Shown here one piece after another: positions 23,408 through 26,097 of a DNA stretch of 64,000 nucleotides. The stretch lies in NCBI RefSeq assembly GCF_003334305.1, contig NZ_QOWS01000001.1. One strand, given 5' to 3'. The notes below the pieces were generated by a model. The model saw only the letters and a program-made list of their open reading frames with translations, searched no databases and was not told where the DNA came from. Positions within the stretch are counted from its first letter, which is position 1. Each line of letters begins with the position of its first letter. The DNA is from Escherichia coli. GTDB taxonomy: Bacteria > Pseudomonadota > Gammaproteobacteria > Enterobacterales > Enterobacteriaceae. The position numbers and the translations under genes were made by a program.

Positions 23408-24011
23408 TTCGCGCCTGCTGCCGACCGGCTCATCACCGCTTGAAATTGCTGCCGCGAAAGCCTGTGCGGAAATTGAAAAAACGCCGGTCAGTATTCGTGA
23501 GCTGTGGAACCCGGACACCTGCCCGGCAAATCTGCTGCCGTGGCTGGCGTGGGCCTTTTCGGTCGACAGGTGGGATGAAAAGTGGCCGGAAGCGACAAAA
23601 CGCGCCGTTATCCGCGATGCCTATTTCATCCACTGTCATAAGGGTACTGTCGGCGCAATCCGGCGTGTTGTGGAGCCGCTCGGCTATCTGATTGAAGTGA
23701 GGGAGTGGTGGCAGCTCAACGAGGAGCCGGGGACGTTCCGTATCGTTGTTGGCGTGCTTGAGCAGGGTATTACCGAAGAAATGTATCTGGAGCTGGAACG
23801 TCTCGTTGCTGATGCAAAACCGGCGAGCCGCCATCTGACGGGACTGGCTATCAGTTTAAGTACAACCGGCAACATTTTTGCCGGAACGGGATGCTATCAC
23901 GGTGACGCCCTGACGGTTTATCCCTACACCCCGGAGGCCATTATTGTCGGAGGGGATTATTTCCCGGCCTCGGTCATTCATTTAATTGATAACCTGAGAG
24001 TAAACGCATGA
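23400..24011 (+). CDS. I: baseplate/tail protein I
   Basis: N-terminus MSDSRLLPTGSSPLE as in P2 gpI; 203 aa here, longer than the ~176 aa I recall for P2. Confidence 0.8.
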   Translation: MSDSRLLPTGSSPLEIAAAKACAEIEKTPVSIRELWNPDTCPANLLPWLAWAFSVDRWDEKWPEATKRAVIRDAYFIHCHKGTVGAIRRVVEPLGYLIEVREWWQLNEEPGTFRIVVGVLEQGITEEMYLELERLVADAKPASRHLTGLAISLSTTGNIFAGTGCYHGDALTVYPYTPEAIIVGGDYFPASVIHLIDNLRVNA

Positions 24012-25687
24012 CAGTGAAATACTACGCCATTCTGACTAATCAGGGCGCAGCACGACTGGCTAACGCGACGATGCTCGGCAGTAAGCTGAATCTGACGCAA
24101 ATGGCCGTTGGTGATGCGAATGGTGTATTACCGACACCAGACCCGGCACAGACAAAACTGATTAACCAGAAACGCATTGCACCGCTGAATCTTCTGAGTG
24201 TTGACCCTAACAATCAGAGCCAGATTATTGCGGAGCAAATTATCCCTGAAAACGAGGGAGGATTCTGGATCCGTGAGATTGGGCTTTATGATGATGAAGG
24301 CGTACTCATTGCGGTGGCGAACTGCCCGGAAACGTACAAACCGCAGTTGCAGGAAGGCAGTGGTCGTACCCAGACTATCCGCATGATTCTGGTTGTCTCG
24401 AATACCGAAGCCATCACGCTGAAAATCGATCCGTCGGTGGTACTGGCGACCCGTAAATATGTGGATGACAAAATCTCAGAACACGAACAGTCACGACGAC
24501 ACCCGGATGCATCGCTGACCGCAAAAGGTTTTACTCAGTTAAGCAGCGCAACCAACAGCACGTCTGAAACACTGGCCGCAACGCCGAGAGCGGTAAAGAT
24601 CGCGTATGACCTTGCTAACGGGAAATATACTGCACAGGACGCGACCACAGCGCGAAAAGGTCTTGTCCAGCTCAGTAGCGCCACCAACAGCGATTCTGAA
24701 ACGCTTGCGGCAACGCCAAAGGCGGTAAAGACAGCATATGACCTTGCTAACGGGAAATATACCGCACAGGACGCGACCACAGCGCGAAAAGGCCTTGTCC
24801 AGCTCAGCAGCGCCACTAACAGCACGTCAGAAACGCAGGCTGCCACACCAAAAGCCGTGAAGGCTGTATATGACCTTGCCAATGGAAAACAACCTGCCGA
24901 CGCCACACTGACCGCACTGGCAGGCCTTGCCACTGCGGCAGACAAACTACCGTATTTTACGGGGAATGATACAGCCAGCCTGACAACCCTGACTAATGTT
25001 GGACGGGATATTCTGGCTAAAACAAGCAAACAGGAGGTTATTCATTATCTTGGTTTGGGAGCTACAAACGGATACGTGGGACGCTTGGTGAATACCCGGG
25101 TTTTCACGTCATCAGGTACGTACACCCCGACACCAGGAACAAAACGGATCAGGGTCACAATAACGGGCGGCGGTGGCGGAGGGGGTGGCTGCCAGGCTAT
25201 ATCCAGTAACGAAACGTTTTTCGGTGCTGGCGGTGGGGCCGGAGGGACAGTAATCACCATACTGACCCCGACACAGAATAGTTATCCTGTCACTATCGGC
25301 GCAGGTGGGGCCGGCGGCGTTGGTGCGACGAACGGCCTCAAGGGCGGTGATAGCTCGTTCGGATCGGTAATAGCCCCTGGTGGTGAAGGCGGCGGAAAAG
25401 TAGGAGTCACAAACACAAACGGCGGTAACGGAGGCGTACCGAATATTGGCGATATCCGCATCACTGGTGGAGATGGAGGCGACGGTCAGTCCGGGAATAT
25501 CAGCGTCAGCGGTGAAGGCGGTGCATCGTACTGGGGAGGCGGTGGACGTGCAGGCGCTGGCGGTGGCGTTAGAGGCAGGGCATTTGGTTCAGGCGGAGGT
25601 GGTGCATACGATGCAGGTTATAGCGGAACCAGTATGACGGGCGGGAAAGGTGCTGATGGGGTTTGTATTATCGAGGAGTTTGCATAA
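24008..25687 (+). CDS. H: tail fiber protein H (559 aa), with a conserved N-terminal anchor, three tandem fibre repeats and a glycine-rich C-terminal domain
   Basis: N-terminus MTVKYYAILTNQGAARLANA typical of P2-family gpH; 3 x 41-aa repeats (LSSATNS.SETLAATPKAVK.AYDLANGKYTAQDATTARKG); C-terminal ~180 aa rich in G/GG runs. Confidence 0.85.
   Translation: MTVKYYAILTNQGAARLANATMLGSKLNLTQMAVGDANGVLPTPDPAQTKLINQKRIAPLNLLSVDPNNQSQIIAEQIIPENEGGFWIREIGLYDDEGVLIAVANCPETYKPQLQEGSGRTQTIRMILVVSNTEAITLKIDPSVVLATRKYVDDKISEHEQSRRHPDASLTAKGFTQLSSATNSTSETLAATPRAVKIAYDLANGKYTAQDATTARKGLVQLSSATNSDSETLAATPKAVKTAYDLANGKYTAQDATTARKGLVQLSSATNSTSETQAATPKAVKAVYDLANGKQPADATLTALAGLATAADKLPYFTGNDTASLTTLTNVGRDILAKTSKQEVIHYLGLGATNGYVGRLVNTRVFTSSGTYTPTPGTKRIRVTITGGGGGGGGCQAISSNETFFGAGGGAGGTVITILTPTQNSYPVTIGAGGAGGVGATNGLKGGDSSFGSVIAPGGEGGGKVGVTNTNGGNGGVPNIGDIRITGGDGGDGQSGNISVSGEGGASYWGGGGRAGAGGGVRGRAFGSGGGGAYDAGYSGTSMTGGKGADGVCIIEEFA
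24527..24895 (+). repeat. 3 x 123-bp in-frame tandem repeat inside tail fiber gene H
   Basis: Three consecutive near-identical 123-bp units encoding the 41-aa phage tail-fibre repeat motif; seen directly in the sequence. Confidence 0.8.
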
Positions 25688-26097
25688 TGAATGCGTCATA
25701 TGCAGTTATTGAAAATGGGATGGTTGTGAATGTCATTGTCTGGGATGGCGAGGATGAATTCACTGTGCCGGATAATCAGCAGCTCATTAATATTTCTGAT
25801 ATCAGTGAGCAGCCCGGAATCGGCTGGGTGTATTCAGACGGGGGATTTACTGCGCCACCCACTCCGGAACGTTCTCATGATGAACTGGTAGCTGACGCTG
25901 AACAGAAAAAACAGTCGCTGTTAGACGCAGCAATGGTCAATATCAGCGTGATTCAGTTAAAGCTGCAGGCCGGGCGCAAACTGACGCAAGAGGAAACTAC
26001 CCGACTTAACGTTGTGCTGGATTATATCGACGCTGTGACGGCAACAGATACCAGCACCGCACCGGATGTCATCTGGCCTGAACTGCCGGAGGCGTAG
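25687..26097 (+). CDS. G: putative tail fiber assembly chaperone (G position, 136 aa)
   Basis: The start ATG overlaps the H stop (TAATG); positionally equivalent to P2 G but shorter and dissimilar at the N-terminus (MNASYAVIENGMVVNVIVWDG). Confidence 0.6.
   Translation: MNASYAVIENGMVVNVIVWDGEDEFTVPDNQQLINISDISEQPGIGWVYSDGGFTAPPTPERSHDELVADAEQKKQSLLDAAMVNISVIQLKLQAGRKLTQEETTRLNVVLDYIDAVTATDTSTAPDVIWPELPEA

Follow-up and report, generated by a model that had tools for sequence, protein, structure and literature searches.

A probable natural chimera: an Escherichia coli P2-prophage tail fibre with a P2-type anchor and shaft and a swapped glycine-rich tip and chaperone

The closest described counterparts of the locus analysed here are the gpH fibre and gpG chaperone of phage P2, the gp24/gp25 pair of cyanophage Pam3, the gp090/gp089 pair of phage vB_EcoM_Goslar and the invertible segments of Mu, P1 and e14. 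Exchange of tail-fibre genes among P2, P1 and Mu is reportedly the subject of classic work by Haggard-Ljungquist et al. in 1992 and Sandmeier in 1994. In the structure of Pam3 gp24, extended glycine-rich strands are stacked and support variable loops, which make contact with the host receptor; the fibre forms a 3:3 complex with a Tfa-like chaperone of two domains (PMC9608196).

The window, meaning the whole stretch of 64,000 nucleotides of E. coli DNA that was analysed (contig NZ_QOWS01000001.1), carries a prophage that shares 96.9% identity with phage P2 in its backbone. We consider it very probable that the tail fibre of this prophage is a natural chimera, in which a P2-type anchor and shaft carry a swapped, Pam3-like glycine-rich tip that came with its cognate tail fibre assembly chaperone (Tfa). 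The swap is phage mosaicism of a textbook kind rather than a new system; since the exchange of fibre tips between unrelated phages has long been established, it is conceptually nothing new. The original prediction for this locus was correct in that the fibre and chaperone genes are real and intact, and erred on the period of the fibre repeats, on their perfection and on the extent of the foreign part.

The P2-type anchor and shaft and the limits of the swap

The genes are arranged in the order V-W-J-I-H-chaperone-FI on the plus strand, with H directly after gene I and flanks 95-97% identical to P2. Gene I (23400..24011 in the ORF list; 203 aa), which encodes a tail/baseplate protein, has a product that agrees with P2 I in 82% of residues over 175 aa, with 27 extra C-terminal residues. 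By blastn, nucleotide similarity to P2 ends at 23836, inside the 3′ part of gene I, and is missing from 23836-24256, which spans that part and the 5′ part of H. The fibre gene H (24008-25687, plus strand) is intact and encodes 559 aa, as judged from the ORF, Pfam, BLASTP and PHROG, where it belongs to phrog_6202 'tail fiber protein' (E 7.7e-257); NCBIfam gave no match for either the H fibre or the 136-aa chaperone. The baseplate-docking domain, Pfam Phage_tail_fib (PF12571; E 1.7e-62), occupies aa 1-150 (24008..24457), which bears out the claim that H keeps a P2-like N-terminus. The initial 461 nt of H match phages pro483, S164 and vB_EcoM-640R3 at 96-97% identity, and the N-terminal domain is a P2-family allele other than the canonical P2 one; compared with P2, the H N-terminus and the gpI C-terminus are both a different allele. 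This domain would dock the fibre to the baseplate beside gpI.

Part of the shaft is formed by three tandem repeats of 132 bp, or 44 aa (24523..24918, plus strand; TRF and Pfam). Phage_fiber_2 (PF03406, a 42-aa model) matches at aa 169-209, 213-253 and 257-296 with E values of 1e-20 to 1.4e-19 and a 44-aa spacing, and TRF gives a period of 132 with 2.6 copies and 83% matches. The number of three tandem repeats is therefore confirmed by Pfam, while the predicted 123-bp unit is not, because the claimed 41 aa are the length of the Pfam match and not the repeat period. Nor are the repeats perfect as had been claimed: measured against a reference copy they score 100/84/68%, and their pairwise nucleotide identities are 84%, 72% and 68%. 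They do not belong to a foreign module either, since P2 H itself carries two Phage_fiber_2 repeats, with 75-85% nucleotide similarity to those found here, and has a non-repeat segment where the third repeat stands in this fibre. The proposal that the repeats are a substrate for copy-number variation holds to the extent that relatives have 2, 3 or 4 copies and differ in shaft length, but the imperfection and the 132-bp period point to an old array and not to a fresh slippage-prone one. An assembly artefact in the repeat count is unlikely, because the units have diverged and the three-repeat gene recurs, at 96-99% identity, in independent complete genomes. A reading of the longer matches in E. 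coli (2486-bp span, 691 aa) as fibres with six repeats was dropped when translation gave three; by translation, a further domain of 132 aa separates the junction from the tip in these 691-aa proteins. In our model, the shaft would consist of the three 44-aa repeats and the conserved junction segment that follows them.

The junction segment, 'ADATLTALAGLATAADKLPYFTGND...HYLGL' (aa 298-350; 24899..25057, plus strand), is 83% identical to P2 H at the nucleotide level; here, on the left, lies the recombination boundary of the swapped cassette. Three unrelated fibres (P0008, P0103 and P0019) have this segment ahead of the tip as well, and Goslar gp090 has a related segment in the middle of the protein (aa 375-456), some 650 aa upstream of its tip. 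The similarity to P2 H ends at about aa 355-361 (BLASTP gives 60% identity for aa 26-361, a stretch that takes in two repeats and the junction, and nothing beyond), so the distal domain is not that of canonical P2 H. The foreign part starts after '...YLGL' (about aa 348) and therefore makes up the last ~210 aa, or 38% of the protein, and not its distal two-thirds as proposed. Along the locus, blastn finds P2 up to 25021, Goslar at 25047-26042, a relic of P2 G at 26249-26296 and P2 again from 26294. The relic, '..VDPANPEWSEIPQAG*' (26249..26296, plus strand), corresponds to the last ~50 nt of P2 G, is 88% identical to the P2 G 3′ end and, together with an inverted chaperone fragment, marks the right-hand boundary of the swap. 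The swapped cassette can accordingly be placed at about 25022-26248, where it would comprise the tip, the chaperone and an inverted chaperone fragment. A terminator-like hairpin followed by a T-run (26296..26322, plus strand; terminator scan) closes the V-W-J-I-H-Tfa operon, and the P2-like pF/FI region follows, with 26294-28000 being 95% identical to P2 17522-19234.

The chaperone and the glycine-rich tip

The chaperone gene runs from an ATG at 25687 to 26097 on the plus strand (ORF, Pfam) and encodes 136 aa, as had been described. Its start shares one base with the stop codon of H (TAATG), an overlap by which Tfa is translationally coupled to H, and it has a GAGGAG Shine-Dalgarno sequence. 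The protein matches Pfam Caudo_TAP (PF02413; E 3.1e-21), the family of lambda Tfa, P2 G and Mu U, at aa 32-135, covering model positions 25-131 of 131. Only aa 61-136 resemble the Tfa proteins of HK97, SfIV and others, at about 78% identity, and full-length matches are confined to Tfa proteins that accompany Gly_rich_2 tips. The N-terminal ~60 aa are thus specific to the glycine-rich tip, with the C-terminal ~76 aa corresponding to the conserved Tfa domain. P2 G, at 175 aa, is 39 aa longer and has a different N-terminal domain, and its match to this chaperone is weak and lies in the C-terminal part. The claim that the chaperone is unlike P2 G is therefore right for the N-terminal ~60 aa and too strong for the protein as a whole, which belongs to the same Caudo_TAP family. 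A PDB sequence search with the chaperone gave nothing meaningful.

The difference in length from P2 G, the gene relics just downstream of the chaperone and the fact that RefSeq often marks the equivalent chaperone in other genomes as 'incomplete; missing N-terminus' could be taken to mean that this is a decaying prophage remnant, in which a 5′-truncated chaperone leaves the fibre unable to fold and non-functional. We regard this as improbable. Both ORFs are intact and joined by the TAATG overlap with its Shine-Dalgarno sequence, the identical 136-aa protein is listed by RefSeq as intact in L009, and the neighbouring tail/baseplate region (21207-28000) is about 95-96% identical to P2 outside the swapped segments. 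A length of 131-138 aa and the N-terminal sequence are kept both in the lytic phage Goslar, whose gp089 (138 aa) is 65% identical over its full length, and in another Gly_rich_2 P2-like prophage, whose 131-aa Tfa is 50% identical over its full length; because these homologues are similarly short, the shortness is native. A distant tip homologue in a Mu-like baseplate context (P0137) has no obvious Caudo_TAP gene adjoining it, so the pairing of tip and chaperone is recurrent and not universal.

The chimera that we favour ends in a TNF-like and glycine-rich C-terminal receptor-binding domain at aa 348-559 (25049..25684, plus strand), in which Pfam finds Gly_rich_2 (PF21722) at aa 368-556 (E 7.2e-13; model positions 2-224 of 226). 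The predicted glycine-rich distal stretch is present, with GGGGGGGG, GAGGGAGG and GGDGGDG all found in it. Glycine accounts for 35% of residues 376-559, in runs of up to 8 G, compared with 4-6% of residues 1-305; BLAST low-complexity masking covers most of the stretch, and a single-sequence AlphaFold2 run on aa 298-559 was poor (pLDDT 37) and was discarded. In principle, these properties could reflect a low-complexity, disordered or collagen/PE-PGRS-like spacer with no folded receptor-binding domain, a reading to which we assign very little weight in view of the following. The run that replaced the discarded one, with a 61-sequence alignment, gave a monomer model of the tip with pLDDT 94.1 and pTM 0.89. 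A profile from the same number of tip homologues matches Pam3 gp24 (7YFW; E 1.2e-14), and the top Foldseek matches of the model in the PDB are the Pam3 fibre (7YPX; TM 0.69), Bxb1 gp33 and the ALK/LTK TG domain, besides 270 viral structural matches. The glycine positions are invariant in homologues of 40-85% identity, and of the 72 representatives inspected, 70 have the domain at their very C-terminus. As predicted for the monomer, the fold would be a beta-sandwich and, after it, a lattice made of extended glycine-rich strands, that is, a tip of the Pam3 gp24 kind. Variation among close homologues is concentrated between the conserved glycine runs, and these variable patches are at most suggestive of assembly as a trimer and of distal loops that bind the receptor. 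No papers turned up in the literature for PF21722 or Gly_rich_2. Database annotation errs repeatedly on both kinds of protein, with glycine-rich fibre proteins being named 'carbohydrate kinase' and the short chaperone being called a truncated pseudogene.

Origin, distribution and possible receptor of the cassette

Tail-to-tail with the intact Tfa gene lies an inverted fragment of a second one (26069..26281, minus strand), about 210 bp of its C-terminal part with an internal stop (translation '...LAQYNLWLDYLYAPERSDTSGTSDIEWSTPP'), at a position whose equivalent RefSeq annotates as a Tfa pseudogene. An active Gin/Cin/Pin-type invertible switch of host range between two fibre tips can hardly be the explanation: although the tail-to-tail arrangement is that of Mu G, P1 C and e14 P and the same cassette is found beside recombinase genes or their relics in e14 and P1-type loci, the inverted fragment is short and carries a stop codon, the ORF list holds neither an alternative tip gene nor an invertase gene between H and FI, the flanking inverted repeats are only weak and short (16-18 nt), and the P2 G relic and FI follow immediately. 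We infer that the fragment is a relic of an invertible-segment arrangement.

We therefore return to the chimera, for which the following course of events can be suggested. The tip, the chaperone and the inverted chaperone fragment would have replaced the P2 H tip and gene G by recombination at the conserved junction, and their source may have been an enterobacterial pool of tip/chaperone cassettes on invertible segments of the e14, P1 and Mu type. The original idea of a horizontally exchanged receptor-binding module is upheld in that tip and chaperone were swapped as one unit, but the repeats were not included in it. In the assembled fibre, the N-terminal domain of Tfa would be the part matched to the tip and its helical C-terminal domain the conserved Tfa part. 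If it acts as Pam3 gp25 and Mu Tfa do, the chaperone may hold and trimerise the fibre tip during assembly.

The cassette is present in 262 of 5426 complete E. coli genomes at a coverage of at least 80%. It is also found on other anchors, namely at the stfP/e14 locus and in a P1-like plasmid fibre, each time beside a recombinase relic, and in proteins of 308, 355 and 361 aa. The nearest cassette of an isolated phage is that of the jumbo phage Goslar, where the gp090 C-terminus is 72% identical to the tip. In a tblastn search of the tip against isolated phages, Goslar was the only match, and only over the unmasked half of the tip because of low-complexity filtering.

Genome-wide screens in K-12 have shown that both Goslar and P2vir need LPS, with assignments to different glucose residues of its core, GluII and GluIII, respectively (bioRxiv 10.64898/2026.04.02.716166, supplement), and LPS is also what a Klebsiella fibre carrying a Pam3-like glycine-rich domain recognises (PMC12671077). 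If gp090 is the receptor-binding protein of Goslar, the receptor of the present fibre is probably an outer-core sugar of LPS, and the residue bound possibly differs from that of P2, although at 72% identity the specificity of the tip could also differ from that of Goslar. A host range other than that of P2, as originally proposed, is plausible, and the LPS outer core suggests itself as a testable receptor. A more far-reaching proposal, which we offer tentatively and think rather less likely than otherwise, is that the tip, together with the short Tfa, acts as a portable and self-contained unit for receptor binding that moves among P2, e14, P1-type elements and Goslar and here shifts P2 adsorption from GluIII to GluII. 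If true, this unit would be a natural plug-in module for retargeting P2-based particles. The swap itself indicates a natural cut-and-rejoin point for the P2 fibre, after the '...YLGL' junction and with the cognate chaperone carried along, which is useful for host-range engineering of P2-derived particles.

Comparison with known systems

With P2 gpH/gpG the locus shares the gene order, the Phage_tail_fib family, the 44-aa Phage_fiber_2 repeats, the junction segment and a Caudo_TAP chaperone. In contrast, the tip (aa ~348-559) has no relationship with the C-terminus of P2 H, and fun(Z) is absent.

[quoted passage not shown] Identity is only ~26%, however, and the Pam3 fibre has a minimal helical shaft, neither a P2-type anchor nor Phage_fiber_2 repeats, and a cyanobacterial host; no direct sequence match was found between the Pam3 chaperone and the Tfa described here. 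Goslar gp090/gp089 is the closest relative in an isolated phage, with the same one-base gene overlap and a structural match of TM 0.96, yet its fibre is 1324 aa long with a much longer shaft, and Goslar itself, a lytic jumbo phage that forms a nucleus, is not related to P2.

T-even gp38 adhesins (phage S16 gp38, PDB 6F45) and ALK/LTK likewise present variable loops on stacked glycine-rich motifs, and neither is closely related to the tip in sequence. The gp38 protein is a separate adhesin bound to the gp37 tip and is absent among the fold matches of the present tip, whereas ALK and LTK are animal receptor kinases that give weaker fold matches only. The organisation of the locus is finally that of the invertible segments of Mu (G), P1 (C) and e14 (P), which also combine a constant part, a junction and exchangeable tip-plus-Tfa cassettes with Tfa genes placed tail-to-tail, and the same cassette occurs in e14-like and P1-like loci. 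Unlike those segments, the arrangement in this prophage is frozen in one orientation, with no invertase and with the second Tfa gene reduced to a fragment.

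The fibre and chaperone genes in their P2 setting

Over 79% of its length, the flanking 24 kb matches phage P2 at 96.9% identity, so that the element is a P2 prophage and the gene pair occupies the positions of H (tail fibre) and G (chaperone). Our ORF list places H at 24008-25687 (+ strand, 559 aa) and the chaperone gene at 25687-26097 (+ strand, 136 aa, ATG at 25687), which agrees with the coordinates of the original prediction (24008-26097). The chaperone start codon shares one base with the H stop codon (TAATG), GAGGAG lies 8 nt 5′ of the chaperone start, and a terminator scan found a hairpin with a T-run at the end of the operon (26296-26322). 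Upstream of gene V, a 261-aa minus-strand ORF (20646-21431) sits at the site of the non-essential P2 orf30 and equals it in length; its product is hydrophobic and lysine/asparagine-rich, and from 21207 onwards, where the two were compared, identity to P2 is about 96%.

Boundaries were mapped by blastn of the window against P2 and the jumbo phage Goslar. Identity to P2 is 95.6% at 21207-23836, 75-85% within H at 24256-24889 and 83% at the H junction (24899-25021), the match is to Goslar (68%) at 25047-26042, and P2 returns with the last ~50 nt of G (26249-26296, 88%) and the pF promoter and FI region (26294-28000, 95%). The swapped cassette, placed by this map at about 25022-26248, takes in the terminal ~210 residues of H, the chaperone gene and, from a second, inverted tail fibre assembly (Tfa) gene, a minus-strand fragment of about 210 bp with an internal stop (26069-26281). 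By BLASTP, P2 H aligns with fibre residues 26-361 at 60% identity, taking in two repeats that are nearly identical as protein and the segment 'ADATLTALAGLATAADKLPYFTGND...YLGL', with no similarity past residue 361. The foreign part is thus 38% of H, not the distal two-thirds that had been proposed.

The P2 G relic, which translates as '..VDPANPEWSEIPQAG*', directly adjoins at 26296 the sequence that immediately precedes FI in P2. Missing at this point is the P2 stretch at about 15275-17521, which holds the lysogenic-conversion gene fun(Z) with its flanks. A 66-aa minus-strand ORF (26198-26398) running across the Tfa fragment, the G relic and the hairpin is most likely spurious. A second mosaic patch, at 23836-24256, comprises the gene I 3′ end together with the opening ~250 nt of H; it lacks nucleotide similarity to P2 and represents a different allele of the gpI C-terminus and H N-terminus, shared at 96-97% identity with P2-like phages such as pro483. 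The gene I product has 203 aa vs 176 aa in P2, and the sequence suggests that these two termini may have been swapped as an interacting pair.

Fibre repeats and shaft length

Pfam assigns Phage_tail_fib to aa 1-150 of the fibre (E 1.7e-62), three Phage_fiber_2 repeats to aa 169-209, 213-253 and 257-296 (E about 1e-20 each) and Gly_rich_2 to aa 368-556 (E 7e-13). The predicted glycine-rich strings are present, and residues 376-559 are 35% glycine. The repeats had been described as perfect 123-bp units, but Tandem Repeats Finder gives a period of 132 bp (44 aa; 2.6 copies, 83% matches), the three in-register copies (24523-24918) show pairwise identities of 84%, 72% and 68%, and the figure of 41 aa just reflects the extent of the Pfam hit. 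This divergence argues against a recent or assembly-derived array, and hence against the repeat count being an artefact. Two repeats, also spaced at 44 aa, are present in P2 H itself.

Variation in fibre length, also predicted, was found among P2-like relatives carrying this tip at other E. coli loci, with 2, 3 or 4 repeats. The fibre has 515 aa and two repeats at L003, 559 aa and three at L001 as in the window, 571 aa and three (one at 56-aa spacing) at L008, and 745 aa and four plus another middle domain at L009. At L002 (STN0717-20) and L010 (HUM3355) it has 691 aa, with three repeats and an extra 132-aa domain ('CPASPTGWLKTGNNGES...') between junction and tip; its length matches that of three repeat units (396 bp) by coincidence.

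The glycine-rich tip and its chaperone

Searching 1.84 billion cluster representatives with the tip returned 7919 proteins (E<=1e-3). Among 72 representatives examined, 70 have the domain at most 5 residues from the C-terminus, in proteins of 215-1405 aa. Glycines are invariant or nearly so in a 61-sequence alignment, the profile of which matches cyanophage Pam3 gp24 (7YFW, 7YPX) over the whole domain (E 1.2e-14). The AlphaFold2 model from this alignment (pLDDT 94.1, pTM 0.89) has the Pam3 fibre as its best Foldseek match in the PDB (TM 0.69, E 2e-9), followed by mycobacteriophage Bxb1 tail-tip gp33 and the ALK/LTK TNF-like/glycine-rich domains; among predicted viral structures there were 270 matches at E<=1e-3, the best from Goslar (TM 0.96). 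The Pam3 domain is a TNF-like sandwich whose strands run on into a lattice of glycine-rich motifs, and its variable distal loops are the proposed receptor contact (PMC9608196). In 98 distinct close E. coli homologues, variable patches sit between conserved glycine runs, a pattern consistent with the Pam3 architecture.

The chaperone had been thought unlike P2 G; its length (136 aa) and differing N-terminus (residues 1-60) stand, but it belongs to the same family, being a Caudo_TAP protein (E 3e-21, aa 32-135) with which the C-terminal part of P2 G aligns. Residues 61-136 share about 78% identity with Tfa of HK97, SfIV and many others, and for residues 1-60 the only match among isolated phages is Goslar gp089 (138 aa), with 65% identity along its full length. 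Another P2-like prophage encodes a Phage_tail_fib plus Gly_rich_2 fibre (tip 59% identical) and then a 131-aa Tfa with 50% identity to our chaperone over its full length. These full-length homologues show that the short length is native and, lying beside Gly_rich_2 tips, that the N-terminal domain travels with the tip. RefSeq often labels the chaperone 'incomplete, missing N-terminus' (pseudogene at L002, L003, L006, L007 and L008, intact at L009), which looks like an annotation artefact. In the Pam3 chaperone gp25, which binds the fibre in a 3:3 complex, the N-terminal fibre-binding domain is likewise variable and the C-terminal trimerising domain conserved (PMC9608196).

Distribution, origin and receptor

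The entire H-chaperone stretch occurs in 52 of 5426 complete E. coli genomes (coverage >=80%) and the cassette alone in 262. The cassette is also found on an stfP-type fibre of an e14-like prophage and on a long fibre of a 93-kb P1-like plasmid, each adjoined by a recombinase relic, in 355- and 361-aa proteins that share the junction with the window fibre, and within 308-aa glycine-rich fibre proteins, many named 'carbohydrate kinase', apparently in error. The tail-to-tail Tfa fragment and the e14/P1-type contexts suggest an invertible segment of the Mu, P1 or e14 type as the source. Neither an invertase nor a second tip gene is present at the window locus, which leaves the arrangement fixed.

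Genome-wide screens found Goslar to depend on the LPS genes galU, hldE and waaF and assigned it GluII; P2vir was assigned LPS GluIII (bioRxiv 10.64898/2026.04.02.716166). LPS recognition is known for a Klebsiella fibre whose glycine-rich domain is of the Pam3 kind, and host-adaptation mutations fall within that domain (PMC12671077). By this analogy the tip probably binds an LPS core sugar, with the Goslar fibre gp090 as putative source of the Goslar phenotype, and the sugar may possibly differ from that of P2.

The original interpretation holds in outline, as a tip-chaperone exchange, and fails on the repeats, the extent of the swap and the chaperone family. The locus is a real, intact and well-delimited P2 prophage example of such an exchange, all of its components come from described families, and E. 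coli genomes commonly carry close copies.
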